Source: Candidatus Woesearchaeota archaeon (GTDB lineage Archaea; Nanobdellota; Nanobdellia; Woesearchaeales; DSVV01). From it: a stretch of DNA of 64,000 bases. The notes under the pieces were generated by a model. It made no database searches. It saw only the letters and a program-made list of their open reading frames with translations, and had not been told where the DNA came from. Location of the stretch: contig JABHXF010000028.1 in assembly GCA_018657385.1 (NCBI GenBank), forward strand, positions 1,472-65,471, written 5' to 3'. Below, piece by piece: positions 12,187-57,284 of this stretch. A program made the translations under genes and the position numbers. Each line of letters begins with the position of its first letter. Position 1 is the stretch's first letter.

Positions 12187-12253
12187 GATTTTAATGTTTT
12201 TAATAGTTTAATTCTTTAATATATGTATAAATAATTTGGTCAGACCAATCTTT

Positions 12254-12340
12254 AAATCCAACAACATGGCCGGGCGAACCGAAGGTGAGTAGGATTTTTG
12301 CTTGCAAAAGTCCGTCCGTGCCATTGATGTTGTTGGATTT
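12254..12340 (+). ncRNA. GC-rich three-way-junction structured element, family 1 copy A (candidate small RNA)
   Basis: Outer stem AAAUCCAACAACAU/AUGUUGUUGGAUUU. P1 is GGCCGGGC/GUCCG-U-GCC, P2 is ACC-GAA-GGU, and the junction is GAGUA. P3 is GGAUUUUUG-CUUG-CAAAAGUCC. Confidence 0.65.
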
Positions 12341-12360
12341 ATTATTAAGAGATTAAAAAG

Positions 12361-12395
12361 AAAAAATTCAGTAGCTACATGTCCTCCGGACCTAG
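12361..12395 (-). terminator. GGACCTAG box (conserved small hairpin plus oligo-T), copy 1
   Basis: The minus strand reads CTAGGTCCGGAGGACATGTAGCTACTGAATTTTTTC. This is the only copy not placed after a co-directional stop codon. Confidence 0.35.
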
Positions 12396-12461
12396 TTTAT
12401 GAAAAGTTAAACAAATTTTCTCATAAAATATATAAAGGAGTTATAATCTTAGTTAGTTAAA

Positions 12462-21804: not shown

Positions 21805-21885
21805 AAATCAATCAATTTTATATGTTTAAATCAATCAATTCAGTCTCTTTAAATCAATTAATCTTTTGTCTCAAATTAATCAATT
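21805..21885. promoter_or_regulatory. Four 13-bp direct repeats (AAATCAATCAATT-like) spaced 22-23 bp apart
   Basis: Copies start at 21805, 21828, 21851 and 21873. They fill the intergenic region upstream of moxR, and the last overlaps the preceding stop codon. Confidence 0.6.
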
Positions 21886-22613
21886 CCGTATTTCCTTATC
21901 TCTCCAAAGTATTTCCTTATATATATTCTTTTCTTTTTAGGAAGCAATTCCTCAAAGCTTTTATCAGATTGTTCAAATATATCCTCTGGAAGATATAAAT
22001 CCCTCATACCATTATCCCTTCTCGTTGATAAAGCCATCTCATTAATCAATACATCATCATTTAAATCCTCAATATCAACATCTGCTTCTAACAAACTATT
22101 TGGAACAAGCCCTTCTAAAACATTCTTATCATTTCCAAAAGATAAAGTAGATAATCCAGATTTAAGATCATAAATAAGCATATCATTTGATGTAGCAAAT
22201 AAGACAAGCCCAGAAGCTACAATAATAGCTAATAATATATATGTGATTTTTTTAATATCAATAAAACTGGAAATAGGAACATCTCTTAATGATTTTAATA
22301 CACCCATATGAAGTTTTGATACAACATAATTTACAACATTTTCATAGTCAGCAGCTGTTCTTAGTCTTTCCATTAAAACGGGATTTTTCTTCTCAATCTC
22401 TATTAAATTCTTTGAATTAACTGATTTATGTAGAGCAACTGCAAAGAAAATCATTGCAATTGTAATTGATATACCCCAATAATAAAAGTTAAACATACTT
22501 AAAACAAAGAATGAGATTAAAAAAACGAGTAATGCCATTAGAAAATTCATGAATAAAACTACCTTATTCTGTGTTTCCCTTACTTCTTTTATTGCTGATT
22601 TGAATTCATGCAT
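21876..22613 (-). CDS. Membrane protein of the MoxR/vWA operon (hypothetical)
   Basis: 245 aa with three hydrophobic segments. No motif recognised. Confidence 0.45.
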   Translation of the reverse strand: MHEFKSAIKEVRETQNKVVLFMNFLMALLVFLISFFVLSMFNFYYWGISITIAMIFFAVALHKSVNSKNLIEIEKKNPVLMERLRTAADYENVVNYVVSKLHMGVLKSLRDVPISSFIDIKKITYILLAIIVASGLVLFATSNDMLIYDLKSGLSTLSFGNDKNVLEGLVPNSLLEADVDIEDLNDDVLINEMALSTRRDNGMRDLYLPEDIFEQSDKSFEELLPKKKRIYIRKYFGEIRKYGID

Positions 22614-22712
22614 TTTTTTTTACCTTCTTTACCTTTAAACATATTTTATTCTTAAACATATTTTTCTTTGTTTTTTACTTTTTAATATCACTTTCTTCTT
22701 GTAATACAACAA

Positions 22713-22775
<63 letters not shown>

Positions 22776-22788
22776 AATCTACAAAAGA

Positions 22789-23322
22789 TTAATCCACAAT
22801 ATTTTTTACACATTCAATATCATCATTATCTGCACAGTTTTGAATATCATCTAAATCATCTTCAATATTTTGAACTTTCTTATTTAGTTTTTCAATATTA
22901 TTTTCAGCAGCACTTAAAGCAGCTAATTTTTGATTTAAGTCATTTGTTGTATCTTTAAGCTCTGTTAATGTTGCAGTTAAATCATCTTTTGTTTCCTTTA
23001 ATACTTTTTGAGTTTCTGTAAGCTCACCTTCTGTTTGTTCATAAATCTGATTATACTCTTCTCTTGCTTTTTTTTCAATACTCAATGTTTCATTAAGATT
23101 TTCACTAATATTAACTTTATCATTTTCACATACTTTTAAATTAAAGGCTGTTTGTGTTAAATTATGAAATGTATCTTTATAAACACCATCTAATTGATTA
23201 TAATCTACATTAACATCACCCATTGCATATGTAAAATACAATGTTAATAAAACAGTTGCAGCAATAATTACACCTATTAAAAACAACAAATTAAAGTTTA
23301 TATCTTGTTTCATGAATGACAT
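22789..23322 (-). CDS. N-terminally anchored coiled-coil protein
   Basis: 177 aa with one N-terminal TM segment, followed by heptad-like E/K/L/T-rich sequence (TLTELKDTTNDLNQKLAALSAAENNIEKLNKK). Confidence 0.5.
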   Translation of the reverse strand: MSFMKQDINFNLLFLIGVIIAATVLLTLYFTYAMGDVNVDYNQLDGVYKDTFHNLTQTAFNLKVCENDKVNISENLNETLSIEKKAREEYNQIYEQTEGELTETQKVLKETKDDLTATLTELKDTTNDLNQKLAALSAAENNIEKLNKKVQNIEDDLDDIQNCADNDDIECVKNIVD

Positions 23323-27753: not shown

Positions 27754-27824
27754 AGGTTATATTTATTTAAAATCTGATAATATACCTGGATGAAAAAATA
27801 ATAACAATGGTCAGGCGAACATTT

Positions 27825-27901
27825 AAATCCAACAACATGGCCGGGCGAGGCGAAGCCGAGTAGGACTTTAGTCCGTCCGTGCCGTGGTTGTTGTTGGATT
27901 T
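27825..27901 (+). ncRNA. Family 1 structured element, copy B
   Basis: It has the same outer stem and P1 as copy A. P2 is GGC-GAA-GCC, a compensated version of ACC-GAA-GGU, and P3 is shortened to GGACU-UU-AGUCC. Confidence 0.65.
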
Positions 27902-27943
27902 ATTGTTAATATACTAAGTGTTAATATACTAAGAAAAAAAAGA

Positions 27944-27974
27944 AAATCACGGGAAACACGTCCTCCGGACCTAG
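27944..27974 (-). terminator. GGACCTAG box, copy 2
   Basis: The minus strand reads CTAGGTCCGGAGGACGTGTTTCCCGTGATTTTCTTTTTTTT, starting 17 nt after the stop of the 27991-28728 gene. Confidence 0.45.
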
Positions 27975-27990
27975 TAAAACAAAAAAGAAA

Positions 27991-28728
27991 TTATGCCTTT
28001 GGTTTTTGGGCTAATACACACATTAAACCATTTAACAAAAAGCTAGAAACAACATTTAAACCTAACAAAATAGTCATGTCTGTACCTACAAAAATTAATG
28101 TGTAATTTAGCATTAATACATACGCCACAACAGTAATAGCCACTGATAAGAAAGGCATCATTCTTAATAATAATGATATTGGTTTTGATGAAATTACGAA
28201 AAAAGTAACAACCAAACTAAAATAAGCAGGCATCATAGTCATTATTATCTTAACTAAACTATGATCAGTACTCATACCCATGAAAAGAACAAATACTGAT
28301 AATACAAATATTGAAAATAATAATACTAGGCCAGAAGGGAATACAGTGGTAATTGGATGATCATAATCTACTACTTTTCCTTCTTTGATTAATTTTATTG
28401 CTTTATCTATCATGTCTTTGTGATGACCTGATCTAAGTAAAGCACTTTTAATTGCACTTGTAGAATATCCATTTTTTAACTGCTTTTGCATGTAATCCAC
28501 TAACATGTTTTGAATATAGAAATACATTTCCTCAGTCATATCTTTCTTTGTTGAAATTTGTTTGTGTTCTGGTTTTAGATTACCTAGATTACTAACAACA
28601 TGATCAACTAATTGTTTTTTATAACCATATTTAAAAAGAGCAGTTTTAATATCTTCAAGATCATAACCCTGTTCAACCTCAAACTTAACATAACTTGTTA
28701 AGTGCTTAATTAGATATTCTTCTTGCAT
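27991..28728 (-). CDS. Membrane protein with duplicated N-terminal soluble module (hypothetical)
   Basis: 245 aa. Two similar about 60-aa segments (GYDLEDIKTALFKYGY and GYSTSAIKSALLRSGH) are followed by about four TM segments. Confidence 0.5.
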   Translation of the reverse strand: MQEEYLIKHLTSYVKFEVEQGYDLEDIKTALFKYGYKKQLVDHVVSNLGNLKPEHKQISTKKDMTEEMYFYIQNMLVDYMQKQLKNGYSTSAIKSALLRSGHHKDMIDKAIKLIKEGKVVDYDHPITTVFPSGLVLLFSIFVLSVFVLFMGMSTDHSLVKIIMTMMPAYFSLVVTFFVISSKPISLLLRMMPFLSVAITVVAYVLMLNYTLIFVGTDMTILLGLNVVSSFLLNGLMCVLAQKPKA

Positions 28729-31251: not shown

Positions 31252-31395
31252 TTAAGTTGAGAAGATGAGATAATATTAAAAGTTTGTTAATTTTATAGGG
31301 TGGTGGGTGGGGGCTCCTAGGGGGATGGTTAATCTTTTCTCACTAATATTTATAAAATTAAATTACATTAAAACAAAATTAGTTTAAAATAAAAT

Positions 31396-31430
31396 AAAAA
31401 ATTCATGAGCTATATGTCCTTCGGACCTAG
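31396..31430 (-). terminator. GGACCTAG box, copy 3 (no adjacent family 1 core)
   Basis: The minus strand reads CTAGGTCCGAAGGACATATAGCTCATGAATTTTTTATTTTATTTT, starting 36 nt after the PEP carboxylase stop. Confidence 0.45.
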
Positions 31431-31466
31431 TGTAGAAAAACTAATAGAAAAAAGAAAAAAATAGAT

Positions 31467-33471: not shown

Positions 33472-33556
33472 CTAGGTTCGGAGTACTTTCAAACTTGTTT
33501 GGAAGCTCAATAATCTCGATGAAGTAGGGATTATTTTTGCGTATTTCCCGTGACTT
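33472..33556 (+). terminator. GGACCTAG box, copy 4 (degenerate and split by an about 50-nt insertion)
   Basis: The plus strand reads CTAGGTTCGGAGTAC ... TTTCCCGTGACTTTAATTTTT, starting 31 nt after the 76-aa ORF stop. Confidence 0.35.
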
Positions 33557-33590
33557 TAATTTTTCATTAGTTTTATTACGTTAATAGAAA

Positions 33591-33678
33591 AAATAACAAC
33601 AACAAAGGCATGGACGGACATTTTTCTACGAAAAATATCCTATTCGGCTTCGCCCCATCCGGCCATTGTTGTTATTTT
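33591..33678 (-). ncRNA. Family 1 structured element, copy C
   Basis: The minus strand reads AAAAUAACAACAAU-GGCCGGAU-G-GGCGAAGCC-GAAUA-GGAUAUUUUUC-GUA-GAAAAAUGUCC-GUCCAUGCC-UUUGUUGUUGUUAUUUU. Confidence 0.6.
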
Positions 33679-33748
33679 TTCATTTGCCTTGTAATTGGAT
33701 TTAATTTAAAACATAAACTTAATAATAACTAAAGATTAACATATTAAT

Positions 33749-35478: not shown

Positions 35479-35645
35479 GGTTGTGTTTTGAAGGCTTGGA
35501 TGGTTTGAAGCTTGTAAGGCTTGGAAAGCTTGTAAGGCTTGTAAGGCATTTTGAGTTTTTTACTAGTGGGCCCACTAGCAAATAAACAATTTGCCCTACA
35601 AACCTTACTAACCCTACAAGCCTTACTAACCTTACAAGCCTTTCT
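35479..35645. repeat. Long GT-rich/AC-rich palindrome (family 3, copy 3) with a perfect central palindrome
   Basis: The left arm carries GCTTGTAAGGCTT repeats and the right arm AAGCCTTAC repeats. The centre is CTAGTGGGCCCACTAG, a perfect 16-mer palindrome. Confidence 0.6.
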
Positions 35646-35694
35646 TTTTCCACCAAAAACTATTTATACAACTTCTCACAGGAATAATATTGCA

Positions 35695-36375
35695 ATGGAC
35701 ACTATGGATTGTATTTATACGAGAAGATCTATTCGTAAGTATAAAGATATCCCTATAGAATGGGAATTAGTTGGTAGAGTTGTAGAAGCTGGTAGTCTTG
35801 CACCTACAGCAGGAAACATACAAGATTTTAGATTTATTGTTGTGCAAGATGAAACAAAAAGAAAACAATTAGCAGAAGCATGTTTACAACAATATTGGAT
35901 GGAATCTGCTCCAACAATTATTGTTGCATGTGCTGAGATAAAAAGAGCAAAATTATTCTATGGAGTAAGAGGAGAAAGATTATATACTATACAAAATGTA
36001 GCTACTGCAATGGAAAATATGTTATTAGCTGCACATAATTTTGGATTAGGTGCATGTTGGGTTGGAGCATTTGATGAAAACATGGTAAAAAGAATATGTG
36101 GTATTCCTGATTATGCTAGAGCACATGCAATCATGACCTTAGGACATCCAGATGAACAACCTCCAAAACCACAACAATATAAATTAGAAAATTTATTCTA
36201 CTTTGAAAAATATAATAATAGAATTAAAGATATCCATGTTGTTTTAGGAGAATATAGTCCAACAATTGCAAGACATGTAAAAGAAACAAAAGAAAGTTTA
36301 GATAAATCAACAGGGAAATTATTAGGTCATGTTGGAAAAGCAATTAGTAAATTAACTGGAAAAAAGAATAAGTAA
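35695..36375 (+). CDS. Nitroreductase-family flavoprotein
   Basis: I chose the start MDTMDCIYTRRSIRKY, and RRSIRKY is the typical nitroreductase N-terminus. The track ORF from 35551 only extends through the palindromic repeat. Confidence 0.8.
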   Translation: MDTMDCIYTRRSIRKYKDIPIEWELVGRVVEAGSLAPTAGNIQDFRFIVVQDETKRKQLAEACLQQYWMESAPTIIVACAEIKRAKLFYGVRGERLYTIQNVATAMENMLLAAHNFGLGACWVGAFDENMVKRICGIPDYARAHAIMTLGHPDEQPPKPQQYKLENLFYFEKYNNRIKDIHVVLGEYSPTIARHVKETKESLDKSTGKLLGHVGKAISKLTGKKNK

Positions 36376-37845: not shown

Positions 37846-37969
37846 ATTACCTGATTTTTTTATTTTATTTTTTTATTAAATATTTTATCATAATTACTCA
37901 TAATCATTAGGTAAAAACAATTCATGCTCATACCCTTTTTAGGGTCTTTGTGTGGTGTAAGAAGTTCTT

Positions 37970-38013
37970 GCCTTCAGGTTTTTGTCACCCCCGACACTCC
38001 AACGCCTGAAGGC
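37970..38013 (+). other. GC-rich hairpin island (candidate small RNA or terminator)
   Basis: GCCTTCAGG-N26-CCTGAAGGC forms a 9-bp stem, preceded by a small ACCC-TTTTTA-GGGT hairpin at 37932-37945. It lies 125 nt downstream of ftsZ. Confidence 0.3.
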
Positions 38014-38075
38014 ACTTTTATTCTGTAGATTTTAGAGTATAAATATTTATATACATCATATTATTTCCTTTCTTT

Positions 38076-41135: not shown

Positions 41136-41149
41136 TTCTTTGTTTTTTA

Positions 41150-41181
41150 CTAGGTCCTGAGGACATGTTTCCCGTGATTTT
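41150..41181 (+). terminator. GGACCTAG box, copy 5
   Basis: The plus strand reads CTAGGTCCTGAGGACATGTTTCCCGTGATTTT, starting 14 nt after the kae1 stop and followed by AATTTTT. Confidence 0.45.
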
Positions 41182-41214
41182 AATTTTTCATTAGTTTTAT
41201 TACGTTAATAGAAA

Positions 41215-41299
41215 AAATAACAACAACCATGGCACAGACGGACTTTTCTTTCAGAAAAATCCTACTCGCCTAACGGCTCGCCTGGCCAAGTTGTTATTT
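41215..41299 (-). ncRNA. Family 1 structured element, copy D
   Basis: The minus strand has P1 GGCCAGGC/GUCUG-U-GCC, in which the G-C pair of copy A is replaced by A-U. P2 is GCC-GUUA-GGC, the junction is GAGUA, and P3 is GGAUUUUUC-UGAAA-GAAAAGUCC. Confidence 0.65.
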
Positions 41300-41322
41300 T
41301 CTCATCCAGTAATGTTATGAGA

Positions 41323-41355
41323 TTTAAAGATTCGCTTGGCCAAATTGTTGGATTT
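41323..41355 (-). repeat. Truncated 5' half-copy of family 1 (D')
   Basis: The minus strand reads AAATCCAACAATTTGGCCAAGCGAATCTTTAAA, which is an outer-stem 5' arm plus a P1 5' arm only. A 6-bp hairpin (TCTCAT...ATGAGA) and then copy D follow. Confidence 0.5.
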
Positions 41356-45803: not shown

Positions 45804-46361
45804 ATGTGGAAAAAGGTTTTAGAAACTAAAGATATAATGGCTTATGAGAAAAAACTAAATGAATTAGATGTAAGAATAGAAGCTAGACAAATAAATGATG
45901 AATGGAAAGTTTATGTGAAATATTTTAATTCTAAAATTAACTTTACAGATGAATATGATTGTGAAAATCTAGAGAAGACAAAAGAATTAATCTTTTGTTT
46001 GAAAAATACTGAACTTAAGTCTGTAAAAGAGATTATACAATTGAAACTTCAACAAAATAAAGAAGTAAAAATCAATTTAAAGAGAACAAATCGTGATTAT
46101 AATAGTGAATCATGGATATTTGGTATTAATGATGAAAGTCCTGATAATAAAGTTATAGTCAGAGAAACAGACTTTATTGAGGTAGAAGTTATCTTAGGTG
46201 AAATGTATAAAGTATATGAAGAACGAATTCTTGAAAAGTTAGTAGAGATGTTAGGGTTGAGTAACCAAGACGTTAAAACTAAAATAACTGTATATTATTG
46301 TAAGAAGAAAGTTAAATATTATCTAGAAGAAGGTTATATGGAAGAAGTACAGAAGTGTTAA
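45804..46361 (+). CDS. Hypothetical protein
   Basis: 185-aa ORF. No motif recognised. Confidence 0.4.
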   Translation: MWKKVLETKDIMAYEKKLNELDVRIEARQINDEWKVYVKYFNSKINFTDEYDCENLEKTKELIFCLKNTELKSVKEIIQLKLQQNKEVKINLKRTNRDYNSESWIFGINDESPDNKVIVRETDFIEVEVILGEMYKVYEERILEKLVEMLGLSNQDVKTKITVYYCKKKVKYYLEEGYMEEVQKC

Positions 46362-46420
46362 TTATTTATTCTATTAGTAATTTGATGAGAGACTATAATC
46401 TACTTTTTATTTGAAAAATA

Positions 46421-46515
46421 CAACAACAACATAGGCAAGAGACGGACATTTAAAAAATGTCCTAGGGGGCACCCCGAATGGGGCAACCCCCACCCCCTCT
46501 CTGCCTTTGTTGTTG
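46421..46515 (-). ncRNA. Family 1 structured element, copy E (long-P2 subtype)
   Basis: The minus strand has P1 GGCAGAGA/UCUCU-U-GCC. P2 is GGGGG-U-GGGGGUUG-CCCC-AUUC-GGGG-UG-CCCCC, then CUA, and P3 is GGACAUUU-UUU-AAAUGUCC. Confidence 0.6.
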
Positions 46516-46524
46516 CATTTTTAT

Positions 46525-46627
46525 AAAACACCACCATTGACGCAGACCGACCGAGGGTTGGCTCCTTCGGAGTGGTCGGTAGGATTTTCATAGAAAATCC
46601 GTCTGCTGTCAGTAGTGGTGGTGTTTT
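46525..46627 (+). ncRNA. Family 1 structured element, copy F (long-P2 subtype)
   Basis: The outer stem is AAAACACCACCA/UAGUGGUGGUGUUUU and P1 is GACGCAGAC/GUCUGC-U-GUC. P2 is CGACC-GAGGGUUGG-CUCC-UUC-GGAG-U-GGUCG, then GUA, and P3 is GGAUUUUC-AUA-GAAAAUCC. Confidence 0.65.
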
Positions 46628-46704
46628 ATAAAGATAAAATAGAAAAAATTAACCAAAACAACAGAAAGATATTTAAATAAACCACTACTTTTAATGAGCT
46701 AGAC

Positions 46705-46817
46705 AGCCCCGTAGTGTAGTGGCCCATCATCCTGGATTTTGGAAGGCGGAAAAGTGGATTTTTCTGTGTTTCCCCTGGGAATGTCCTGGGACCTCGGTTC
46801 AAATCCGGGCGGGGCTA
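46705..46817 (+). tRNA. tRNA-Gln(UUG) with a 40-nt intron at the canonical 37/38 position (46743-46782)
   Basis: The acceptor stem is AGCCCCG/CGGGGCU with an A1-U72 pair, as I recall for archaeal tRNA-Gln. The T arm is CUCGG-UUCAAAU-CCGGG and the anticodon loop is UUUUGGA. A 3-4-3 bulge-helix-bulge can be drawn, and CCA is not encoded. Confidence 0.8.
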
Positions 46818-46862
46818 TTCTTCTTTATTATTTCTTTAGAATTTAATCAGAAAAATAACCAG

Positions 46863-48005
46863 TTATTTAAATAAATACTTCTGCTCTAACTCTTCTAATT
46901 GTTTTAAAACAACCTCTCTTCTTTCAGAATCAAATATTATTGCAGATGTATCTTGACAACCTTCACAAGAATCGCAAATAGTGTTGCATGAGAGAAAATT
47001 ATAATCAGATGCAATGCTAACTCCCATAAGTTCAGGCAATATTCTTCTATATTCTCTAATACCTGCTCTTGAACTGCTTACTTCATCTGTATCTATATTA
47101 AATACTTCTTCATTAGACATTGAATCTATATAAAAAGTTGAAAAGTTAGATGTTAAGTCTAATATGTTTCCATCATATGAACCACTCAAATAAGAACCTA
47201 TAACTTTTTCAATCCATGGAGTAGAATGAGATCTATCTACTAATTTTACAGAATCAACTCCTATTGATTCATATGCATCAAGATCTTCAGGTCTTATTAT
47301 AGGAAGTTGAAGAAATTCTTCTGGGTTTTCCATAAGATGTTTCATACAATAAAATGTAAAAGGTCTACAATGTAATGATGGTGCGTCTATCGAAGCATAT
47401 GATTTTATTATTGCATGTCCTCTTGCTTGTATGCAATTTGACATGCATCCTAGATTTGCAATTACTCTTATTTCAGTATCTGTTTTTTTTGCTTCTTCAA
47501 CCATTTTTTCAAGTAATGGAATATTCCTATAAGTTGAACCTCCAGAAACTATTGTTTTAACATTTTCAAGTTTAATCCATTGTTTTAATCTTTTCAAAGA
47601 ATCAACATTAGTATAAAAAGAAGCCACTACCTCAGTGCTTGGACAATATCTTTCAGCTAATCTTGCAAGTCCATAAGTTGCAACAGTTATTTTTTTTATT
47701 CCAGACTCTTCTATCCATTCAAGTTCTTCTATTATCTTTGGTCTGTCTTTCAAAAAATCAAATCTTGGAATAATATCATTGATTGACCACTCATATTCAA
47801 TTCCTAATTTTCTAAATCCAAATATTCTCTGCATAGCTTCTGGTCTAACATAATCCCATAGATTGGTTCTTCCAGAACCTAAATAAGTATTCTTTGTAAG
47901 TTTTCCATATACCTCTACTATTTGATGAGGTGATTCTTTTTCTTTTAATCTTTTTACTGCATCTAATAATTTAGGATCATTATTATCTGGGATTATTAAT
48001 TTCAT
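46863..48005 (-). CDS. Cys-rich hypothetical protein, possibly a U32-like TIM-barrel (uncertain)
   Basis: 380 aa with a central Cys group (GCMSNC...HC...YC) and a C-terminal CNTICDSCEGC. It is divergent from TrmB paralog 2 across the shared dyad block. Confidence 0.35.
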   Translation of the reverse strand: MKLIIPDNNDPKLLDAVKRLKEKESPHQIVEVYGKLTKNTYLGSGRTNLWDYVRPEAMQRIFGFRKLGIEYEWSINDIIPRFDFLKDRPKIIEELEWIEESGIKKITVATYGLARLAERYCPSTEVVASFYTNVDSLKRLKQWIKLENVKTIVSGGSTYRNIPLLEKMVEEAKKTDTEIRVIANLGCMSNCIQARGHAIIKSYASIDAPSLHCRPFTFYCMKHLMENPEEFLQLPIIRPEDLDAYESIGVDSVKLVDRSHSTPWIEKVIGSYLSGSYDGNILDLTSNFSTFYIDSMSNEEVFNIDTDEVSSSRAGIREYRRILPELMGVSIASDYNFLSCNTICDSCEGCQDTSAIIFDSERREVVLKQLEELEQKYLFK

Positions 48006-49558: not shown

Positions 49559-49666
49559 AAAATCCATTCATTGCGCACATGTGAGTCGACTGAAAGGAGA
49601 CGAATAGGATTTTTTTGAACGTAGTGAAAAAAAGTCCGTATGTGCTGCCATGAATGAATGGATTTT
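49559..49666 (+). ncRNA. Family 1 structured element, copy G
   Basis: The outer stem is AAAAUCCAUUCAUU/AAUGAAUGGAUUUU and P1 is GCGCACAU/AUGUGC-U-GC. P2 is GUCGACU-GAAA-GGAGAC, the junction is GAAUA, and P3 is GGAUUUUUUU...AAAAAAAGUCC. Confidence 0.6.
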
Positions 49667-49689
49667 CAATTACATTATAAGAAAAAATA

Positions 49690-49722
49690 AAAATCCAATA
49701 GCTACATGTCCTTCGGACCTAG
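49690..49722 (-). terminator. GGACCTAG box, copy 6
   Basis: The minus strand reads CTAGGTCCGAAGGACATGTAGCTATTGGATTTTTATTTTTT, starting 36 nt after the stop of the 49759-50088 gene. Confidence 0.45.
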
Positions 49723-49758
49723 ACATTGTTGTAAACAAAAAAAAGAATTAAAATAAAG

Positions 49759-54509: not shown

Positions 54510-54571
54510 TTTGTTGTTTTTGTTTTATTCTATAAAAATCATAATAATAAATTGATTTCACACTTTTAGAA

Positions 54572-54680
54572 AAATTACCAACAATAATGGTGGCAGACGG
54601 CCATTTTCTTTCAGAAAATGTCCTATGGTCCACCCCGGAAGGGACAACCCCCAGATCATCTGCACCATTGTTGGTGATTT
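54572..54680 (-). ncRNA. Family 1 structured element, copy H (long-P2 subtype)
   Basis: The minus strand has P1 GGUGCAGA/UCUGC-C-ACC. P2 is GAUCU-GGGGGUUG-UCCC-UUCC-GGGG-U-GGACC, then AUA, and P3 is GGACAUUUUC-UGAAA-GAAAAUGGCC. Confidence 0.6.
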
Positions 54681-54704
54681 TTCTCACCATATTTATTAAA
54701 AATA

Positions 54705-57154: not shown

Positions 57155-57200
57155 ATTGGTTTTGATTAGTAAATAAATAAGAATAAATTTTTAAAAAATT

Positions 57201-57233
57201 AAAATTCCTGAGAAACACGTCCTCCGGACCTAG
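57201..57233 (-). terminator. GGACCTAG box, copy 7 (no adjacent family 1 core)
   Basis: The minus strand reads CTAGGTCCGGAGGACGTGTTTCTCAGGAATTTTAATTTTTT, starting 51 nt after the hydA stop. Confidence 0.45.
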
Positions 57234-57284
57234 TTAAAAAAAACAAAACATAATAAAACAGAATTAAAAATAAATAATCAACTT

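Follow-up and report, generated by a model that had tools for sequence, protein, structure and literature searches.

The elements described here lie back to back in a 64-kb stretch of DNA (the window) from a Woesearchaeota archaeon of the DPANN group, with a GC content of ~29%. Denoted E and F, they occupy opposite strands of the spacer between an upstream gene for a 185-aa (amino acid) protein and a tRNA-Gln gene, and belong to a family of which the window holds exactly eight copies, labelled A to H, according to a covariance model built from seven copies and cross-checked with a second such model; the host assignment comes from LonB and the other proteins encoded in the window; loci from other contigs or genomes used for comparison carry L-numbers (L004 and so on). 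P1, P2 and P3 are the three helices of the element, and the locus comprises:

46420-46516, minus strand: element E, complete, a three-way junction whose P1 is of the AACAAC type and whose P2 is long, from direct reading and covariance models.
46465-46497, minus strand: P2 of E, with basal helix GGGGG/CCCCC, loop U-GGGGGUUG, GGGUUG at 46484-46489 and hairpin CCCC-AUUC-GGGG, from reading, alignment and pair counts.
46444-46462, minus strand: P3 hairpin of E, GGACAUUU-UUU-AAAUGUCC, with the junction UA before it and, after it, G and then P1's 3′ strand.
46517-46524, no strand: spacer between E and F, ATTTTTAT, overlapping the palindrome TTTTATAAAA at 46519-46528.
46525-46627, plus strand: element F, complete, with a variant CACCAC/GUGGUG P1 and a long P2, from direct reading and covariance models.
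46547-46579, plus strand: P2 of F, with basal helix CCGACC/GGUCGG, loop GA-GGGUUG-G, GGGUUG at 46555-46560 and hairpin CUCC-UUC-GGAG.
46582-46600, plus strand: P3 hairpin of F, GGAUUUUC-AUA-GAAAAUCC.
46400-46591, minus strand: open reading frame (ORF) of 63 aa, overlapping E and F; spurious.
46705-46817, plus strand: tRNA-Gln(UUG), a neighbour outside the element, matched by the Rfam tRNA model at 40 bits (gathering score 29; E = 1e-6).

That E and F stand 5′ end to 5′ end, as an earlier note on this DNA had claimed, was confirmed by reading and by the two covariance models, which match E at 46415-46521 (75.5 and 64.6 bits) and F at 46523-46629 (62.9 and 47.4 bits). Between the two facing 5′ ends lies CATTTTTAT (46516-46524), a gap of 9 nt, or of 8 nt when the first G-C pair of E is counted in, and the palindrome in this gap is a perfect one of 10 nt that extends into F, although the 11-mer quoted in that note is not fully palindromic. 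The same source had described the helices, loops and hairpins of P2 in E, F and copy H, and these were found as stated save that the hairpin loop of F has 3 nt (UUC) rather than 4 and that the helix of H contains one A.C mismatch; the basal helix of F, given as CGACC/GGUCG, can be extended to CCGACC/GGUCGG. The folds of E and F are far more stable than those of shuffled sequences, with z between -6.0 and -7.7 (-6.9 for E, -6.4 to -7.7 for F) and none of 200 shuffles equally stable. The 63-aa ORF, taken in that note for the mere antisense of the elements, does exist, yet it is nowhere called as a gene, its product having no gene on record in a public collection of assemblies.

The unit of the family measures 80-115 nt and folds on one strand into a three-way junction, whose consensus in the short type reads AAAAUAACAAC-AU-GGC-C[R]G[R] / Y-GA-RNC-GAA-GNY-GA-R / UA / GGA-(A/U-rich hairpin)-UCC / G / UC[Y]G-U-GCC-NNNG-UUGUUGUUAUUUU. 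P1 is a long rod between an A-run on the 5′ side and a U-run on the 3′ side, in which the outer helix, (AAC)n/(GUU)n, is followed by an internal loop that is small and asymmetric, then by a GGC/GCC segment with a bulged U, and finally by an inner helix of 4-5 bp. P2, whose tip is interchangeable, joins P1 without a linker, and a near-invariant UA-GGA...UCC-G encloses the A/U-rich P3, leaving junction strands of 0 nt, UA and G. P2 also contains tandem G.A pairs, which sit in a regular helix, without the 3-nt bulge of a kink-turn (K-turn).

This fold is borne out by covariation throughout. Outer P1 is 99% paired, with changes on both sides in seven of ten pairs; the second pair of inner P1 is G-C in 36 copies and A-U in 47; and the pair closing P2 is C-G in 54 copies, U-A in 28 and a mismatch in one, from which it follows that the 5′ strand ends in a nucleotide whose partner is the one just ahead of UAGGA. 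Pair counts over the whole family show inner P1, the interior of P2 and P3 to covary as well. Among 1329 pair cells there are 106 G.U and six A.C, and at two positions where G.U alternates with A-U or C-G, A.C is never present. This excess of G.U over A.C fixes the folded strand as the strand under selection and upholds the strand that had been assigned to the elements from the letters alone.

Several known RNAs were considered for this architecture and rejected. Hammerhead ribozymes, whose stems are joined by the core strands CUGANGA, GAA and UH, are excluded by junction strands of 0 nt, UA and G, and other three-way ribozymes by reading; C/D box small RNAs (sRNAs) by the lack of C (RUGAUGA) and D (CUGA) boxes in the eight window copies and of a K-turn bulge; and H/ACA sRNAs by the lack, on reading those eight copies, of a set of pocket plus ACA box. 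5S rRNA and a bulge-helix-bulge splicing motif in P1 were likewise rejected by reading, and a short peptide (AUGGCC... UAG in A-C) fails on a frame that is broken in D and L014.

Together with H, E and F define a long-P2 subtype, and its reality, proposed earlier from these three copies, was upheld by a search of 2.0 Mb with a regular expression for a G-rich loop followed by a C-run/G-run hairpin. The expression was found at 13 distinct places, all of which fall within the P2 of family members: E, F, H, L033, L088, L115, L145(+), L147, L150, L151, L155, L159 and L177(+), of which L033 belongs to a distant Woesearchaeon of 62% GC. GGGUUG is present in 12 of the 13, so that the loop is indeed conserved in further genomic copies, and reads GGGUGG in L147; two more copies outside the expression read GGGGACG and GGGGUCG, the second of these being L177(-). 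The module of L145(-) reads GGGGGACG, and that of L183 is broken by a nested insertion. The P2 module of F, GAGGGUUGGCUCCUUCGGAGU, recurs in L088 and L151 and, as the one-base variant GAGGGUGGG, in L147. A gapless alignment of 14 modules shows changes on both sides at all six basal P2 pairs, in agreement with the covariation that had been pointed out for P2; pairing holds in 89% of the cells of this helix, compared with 30-53% in controls with slid 3′ partners, and none of 500 shuffles reaches the observed score. Those basal cells that are unpaired are mostly tandem G.A pairs retained from the short type.

The hairpins of the module are CCCC/GGGG in six copies, UCCC/GGGG in three and CUCC/GGAG in four, the last in every case combined with a UUC loop and with GAGGG as the 5′ run; P2 of H combines the helix GAUCU/GGACC, with its A.C mismatch, and the hairpin UCCC/GGGG. 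At least four alternative tips occur on P2, namely a GAA triloop, a GA-bracketed mini-hairpin, the GGGUUG module and, as the fourth in the family, a CCCAYAC/GUGUGGGGUU hairpin (L134, L014), and the description of P2 as a module added to a basic fold is a fair one. The succession of G-run, C-run and G-run in E (46465-46497, minus strand), F (46547-46579, plus strand) and H (~54625-54660, minus strand) allows two mutually exclusive hairpins; ViennaRNA folds F into the alternative one, and the 5′ run is GAGGG exactly where the hairpin is CUCC/GGAG. With two such states seen and no others, the GGGUUG module could conceivably act as a conformational switch or a triplex.

The six other copies in the window, mostly of the short-P2 type, are as follows:

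12253-12341, plus strand: copy A, short P2, with a 5′ half-arm before it and motif2 (a second repeat, described below) after it.
27824-27902, plus strand: copy B, short P2, 96% identical to L096:1322-1400 at an unrelated locus.
33588-33680, minus strand: copy C, short P2, from the covariance model.
41212-41302, minus strand: copy D, short P2, in the spacer towards which lonB and kae1 both point with their 3′ ends.
49559-49666, plus strand: copy G, divergent, with P1 CCAUUCAUU/AAUGAAUGG and 34 and 43 bits in the two models.
54570-54682, minus strand: copy H, long P2, unpaired with another copy, 22 nt downstream of a gene on the same strand.

Beyond the window, a metagenome scan with a pattern that left P2 unconstrained returned at least 102 stretches, and the covariance model recognized at least 102 copies in 563 kb of those metagenome contigs and ~27 more in the remaining loci. 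Within ~20 kb around lonB, three of 80 Woesearchaeota species have a copy (L004, L014, L033), and two of these three genomes are GC-rich, with elements of ~62% GC. Overall, the family is old, patchy and expanded in some lineages. In Rfam 15 nothing matches the elements at the gathering score, nothing reaches E <= 10 over 46000-47200 and nothing reaches E <= 0.1 over the whole window; phage and plasmid collections hold no similarity to the elements, and two pattern matches in viral contigs are not members of the family. A full-text literature search returned no paper tying DPANN archaea to repeats of the repetitive extragenic palindromic (REP) type or to miniature inverted-repeat transposable elements (MITEs) and, by this search and Rfam, the family appears to be undescribed.

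Head-to-head pairs of unlike copies, like that of E and F, are found at six independent loci (the window, L145, L177, L115/L088, L084 and L134):

Window, E/F: gap of 8-9 nt, both P2 long.
L145: gap of 6 nt, both P2 long.
L177: gap of 9 nt (CTGCAAGAA), both P2 long.
L115: gap of 3 nt, one P2 long and one short.
L088: gap of 0 nt, one P2 long and one short.
L084: gap of 22 nt, both P2 short.
L134: gap of 13 nt, both P2 long, with other tips.

In all of them but L134, where both P1 are AACAAC-like, a copy with an AACAAC-type P1 faces a partner with a variant P1, the variants being CACCAC, CAUCAU, CAUUCAU and CAAACCAA. The pairs of L088 and L115 are orthologous, with flanks 81-83% identical and a conserved junction, and between them the P1 of one partner has changed from CACCAC/GUGGUG to CAUCAU/AUGAUG. 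The dimer arrangement is therefore kept between species, and the spacer sequence and the tRNA neighbour are not. With spacers of 0-9 nt in most pairs, and of 22 nt at most, there is no space for a canonical promoter from which a transcript would start at its own P1, and the claim that E and F are separate, divergent RNA genes is accordingly unlikely; from the TATA-like palindrome between them, a start would fall ~25 nt inside each element.

The family behaves as a dispersed copy-and-paste repeat, a point missing from the earlier note. All 103 non-redundant copies are intergenic, in either orientation relative to their neighbours: 54 have a co-oriented upstream gene and 42 a divergent one, 50 have a co-oriented downstream gene and 46 a convergent one, and 25 of 96 run antisense to the genes on both sides. 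Identity of at least 93% combined with unrelated flanks was found for fourteen pairs of copies, one of them with its members 11 kb apart on a single contig; copies at 95-97% identity, two of them on one contig, again occupy loci with unrelated flanks. In four near-identical pairs the similarity begins and ends exactly at the base of P1, and the boundaries of these four show no direct repeats or target-site duplication. 5′ half-arms adjoin the upstream side of the full copy in A, B, D and L090 (here three in tandem) and likewise in L086, L092, L120, L141, L142, L153 and L163; 3′ arms follow in tandem downstream in L117 and L120; and nested insertions occur in L130, L087 and L183. Presence and absence also differ among relatives: copy D and its companion motif are lacking from the lonB/kae1 spacer of the closest sequenced relative, L004 (57 nt vs 257 nt), and the L108 copy is missing in L178.

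The half-arms of the window (12230-12252, 27800-27823 and, on the minus strand, 41303-41349) and those at L090:547-675 are of the type AAAUCCAACAACAUGGCYRG, and their P1 subtype is usually other than that of the adjoining full copy. At L117:3386-3742 a 57-nt unit is repeated seven times in tandem, each with a 3′ arm UGCCAUGAAUGUUGUUGUUUUUU, and a fourfold array of 26 nt downstream of L120:601 is similar to it.

Among described repeats, those nearest to this behaviour are bacterial. Bacterial interspersed mosaic elements (BIMEs) are inverted pairs of unlike Y and Z repeats; REPs carry a conserved GTAG at the 5′ side of each and are usually species-specific; and systems of REPs with REP-associated tyrosine transposases (RAYTs) have been described in bacteria. 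The present family shares with REPs, BIMEs and REPINs (hairpins formed by REP doublets) a high copy number, strictly extragenic placement and occurrence in either orientation (eight per 64 kb, and the intergenic count given above); with REPs singlet arms, higher-order clusters, the lack of target-site duplication, and presence/absence differences among relatives beside long-kept sites; and with BIMEs the inverted pairs of unlike copies, six of them independent and five mixing AACAAC-type and variant P1. Bacterial REPINs are hairpins of ~89 bp with a variable but folded spacer and flanking runs of A and T (PMC3337134), and the family resembles them in its hairpin of ~90 nt, inverted arms, folded variable interior, 5′ A-run and 3′ T-run. 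It differs from REPs in its archaeal (DPANN) host, in arms that lack GTAG (the junction reads GUAG in about two-thirds of copies and AUAG in about one-third), in an interior that is a conserved three-way junction with near-invariant unpaired nucleotides and a swappable P2 rather than a free spacer, and in motifs common to genomes of 36-62% GC. By analogy, then, the family would work like REPINs and BIMEs, and it is not filed here as a member of that group.

The elements also recall MITEs and palindrome-associated transposable elements (PATEs), non-autonomous derivatives of insertion sequences that include the IS200/IS605 derivatives of haloarchaea: the present family, too, is short, palindromic and non-coding, lies in many copies between genes, and has recent, near-identical members at unrelated sites. 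Here, however, target-site duplication is absent, no parent insertion sequence was found, and the outermost stem varies and covaries instead of forming a conserved terminal inverted repeat.

The interpretation that we favour, with a confidence that is about even, is that of a structured repeat of the REPIN/BIME-like kind, which probably acts in RNA where transcripts end. It is the hairpin unit itself that reaches new intergenic sites by copying, with half-arms, tandem arms and nested copies piling up around it, and E/F is one of the head-to-head dimers, in which a variant-P1 and an AACAAC-P1 copy both bear the GGGUUG module. The folded sense strand may then act in RNA produced by transcription entering through the flanks, its very stable, U-tailed structure ending or insulating transcripts and protecting 3′ ends; with a 5′-to-5′ dimer, transcripts coming in from either flank would have a sense copy at their end, and E/F would in this way separate the gene for the 185-aa protein from tRNA-Gln. 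Spread could be due to an enzyme whose substrate is the folded single strand and whose action produces no target-site duplication.

A number of observations weigh against this interpretation. One-strand selection combined with random orientation relative to genes makes simple read-through termination insufficient as an explanation. Some sites are retained in three or four species, with flanks ~80-87% identical, for example on both sides of ribC, and in L004 and L014 a copy stands ~47 nt upstream of kae1 at the same site, which looks like a retained functional locus. The unpaired bases that are conserved across genomes of 36-62% GC (UAGGA, CC-G-UC, the tandem GA pairs and the GGGUUG module) point to a specific ligand rather than to a plain hairpin. 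A TATA-like word stands 21-32 nt upstream in 19 cases on the sense strand vs three in the antisense control, an enrichment that would fit independent transcription of a minority of copies. As for a mobilizing enzyme, 600 kb of element-bearing loci contain no recurrent ORF family, and tblastn and a motif scan of 2 Mb of partial genomes, a weak test, found no IS200/RAYT-like Y1 transposase.

At the kae1 site, the copies of L004 (13057-13214) and L014 (17322-17447) and a hairpin consisting of P1 only in L007 (~50 nt upstream of kae1, start 8780) all lie ~47-51 nt upstream of the start of kae1 and are divergent from it; the three Woesearchaeota with this arrangement differ widely in GC. The window has no copy upstream of kae1 and instead has copy D downstream of it.

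The main rival, a serious one, is a family of small structured RNA genes, in which each copy, or each transcript that crosses it, would give a stable ~100-nt sense RNA trimmed to the base of P1 and forming a trans-acting, protein-bound particle, with the P2 tips, GGGUUG included, as contacts specific to each partner. One-strand selection whatever the orientation of the neighbours (the G.U and A.C counts above), near-invariant junction and loop nucleotides in genomes of such different GC, the U-run after each copy, the common site upstream of kae1, and orthologous copies kept across species with compensatory changes are all as expected of such genes. So are the TATA-like words at -32 to -21, confined essentially to the sense strand, and certain boxes at promoter distance: the half-arm has a TTTAAAT that begins exactly 26 nt ahead of the full copy in D, L086 and L142, and a TAAAATC stands at this distance in L090:3584, a spacing that is right for a putative archaeal promoter, and in both copies of L014 a TATA-like box starts 22 nt before the stem. 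Yet a position-by-position upstream profile of 93 copies reveals no phased promoter signal, and a TATA-like word at the right distance is found in ~15-20% of copies only; dimers with gaps of 0-9 nt leave no place for a canonical promoter at each P1; recent duplicates have the hairpin in common and not a flanking promoter; half-arms and nested copies are typical of repeat DNA; occurrence is patchy (three of the 80 Woesearchaeota species in the ~20 kb around lonB) with widely variable copy number; and no variable, guide-like single-stranded segment is apparent. Archaeal C/D box sRNAs offer a precedent of sorts, with dozens to hundreds of loci per genome that are intergenic, in any orientation, often promoterless, duplicated and shuffled; the family resembles them in its many small structured intergenic loci in any orientation and differs in lacking C/D or C′/D′ boxes and single-stranded segments of guide length. 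On balance, we consider RNA genes of this kind rather unlikely as the explanation.

A more adventurous proposal may be put forward tentatively: the elements may constitute a new class of abundant small structured DPANN RNAs, in which the invariant junction UA-GGA...UCC-G would serve either as the binding site of a conserved partner or as a catalytic centre, the P2 tips would set partners or switch folds, and the genes would spread as bare hairpins. Equally novel would be the first archaeal REPIN-like system.

A weaker rival, which we judge improbable, is that the elements are recombination sites used as folded single-stranded DNA, in the manner of integron attC sites or IS200/IS605 ends, a recombinase reading the P1 halves, the unpaired spacer and the bulged base. 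The architecture is attC-like: an imperfect hairpin of similar length (80-115 nt) with a paired outer box, an asymmetric unpaired central spacer, a paired inner box with an extrahelical base, and a variable, sometimes branched tip; strand specificity, with one functional strand, and the lack of target-site duplication also agree. The boxes RYYYAAC ... GTTRRRY of attC are absent, however, GUUGUUG being a misfit to GTTRRRY, and the AAC/GUU core is not universal: it is missing from F, G, L115 and L177, with CAC/GUG, CAU/AUG and other pairs taking its place in arms such as CACCAC, CAUCAU and CAUUCAU. Copies lie in both orientations among housekeeping genes (lonB, kae1, ftsZ, ppc, ribC/ribH), not in one-directional cassette arrays beside an integrase, and no recurrent ORF family of integrase, recombinase or transposase type was found in the element-bearing loci sampled, nor did the scan described above find a Y1 transposase. 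The opposite orientation of neighbours, as in E/F, speaks further against dependence on one replication strand.

The tRNA-Gln gene downstream of F has a 43-nt insertion (an intron) after the anticodon loop, its anticodon being UUG by reading, and lies 77 nt from F and not 78, as previously given. ARAGORN reports no tRNA in the window and thus misses it, as do whole-window Rfam scans, and it was found only by a short-range E-value scan. In 60 element-bearing loci ARAGORN, which misses intron-containing genes, finds three tRNAs, the nearest 142 nt from a copy, and beside the equivalent dimers elsewhere no tRNA was detected. The spacer sequence of E/F is not kept in the equivalent pairs of L177, L145, L115, L088, L084 and L134. 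The neighbouring U32-like protein shares only ~62% identity with its closest homologues, at whose loci both the tRNA and the E/F pair are missing; at its own locus, the conservation of the pair was compared among identical strains only (L186). The TATA-like palindrome and the closeness of tRNA-Gln are incidental, equivalent pairs having unrelated spacers of 0-22 nt and no tRNA. That the elements serve specifically as a promoter, processing signal or regulator in cis of this intron-containing tRNA, as F upstream on the same strand and the palindrome between E and F might suggest, is so improbable as to be essentially excluded, the tRNA having its own TTTAAATA box that begins 33 nt upstream of it, in the spacer 3′ of F, the other seven window copies and the equivalent dimers having no adjoining detected tRNA, the dimer spacers differing in sequence, and relatives with the U32-like gene lacking the arrangement.

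The window also holds copies of a second repeat family, motif2, a small covarying hairpin GUCC-UYC-GGAC that elsewhere reads GGC-UUC-GCC or GCC-UGCC-GGC:

12356-12415, 27935-27994, 31391-31450, 49683-49742 and 57194-57253, plus strand: window copies of motif2.
41139-41188, minus strand: window copy of motif2; a remnant lies at ~33544-33575, minus strand.

Its flanks are conserved (..WUCAVURGMWAC-AYR.. and CUAGU), with A-runs on both sides. It is found 20-50 nt after A, B, D and G on the same strand and, in other lineages, upstream of the element; where genes converge, its reverse complement stands just past their 3′ ends with a T-run behind it, in a terminator-like manner, and motif2 is not in Rfam. 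Other features of the window are an (ACTT)n microsatellite of ~20 units at 22705-22784, between the minus-strand ORFs 21876-22613 and 22789-23322, and an inverted block of GCTTGTAAGG-like units at 35510-35639 (arms 35514-35560/35580-35626, 74-81% complementary), which overlaps the start of ORF 35551-36375 and has in Rfam only a weak, chance-level match to MIR844 (E = 0.04). Two GC-rich islands in AT-rich spacers, 37954-38029 and 31282-31346, are neither of them in the element family; one is a hairpin, GCCUUCAGG ... CCUGAAGGC, just after ftsZ, and the other a G-rich stretch, GGGUGGUGGGUGGGGGCUCCUAGGGGG, beside a motif2 copy.

Elements of this kind break metagenome assemblies and create spurious ORFs, such as that of 63 aa, and the covariance model can be used for masking them and for tracking lineages; tRNA counts for such genomes are likely underestimates, given the intron-containing tRNA-Gln that was missed. 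DPANN genomes are very small, and a repeat possibly filling ~1% of one is unexpected. As a new family, the elements provide unusually clean evidence for a conserved single-strand fold with modular variation. If REPIN-like, they would extend to Archaea a type of genome parasite or domesticated repeat described in bacteria, and would predict a mobilizing enzyme; if an RNA family, they would rank with the most abundant non-coding RNAs that these organisms have and would offer a handle on their RNA biology.

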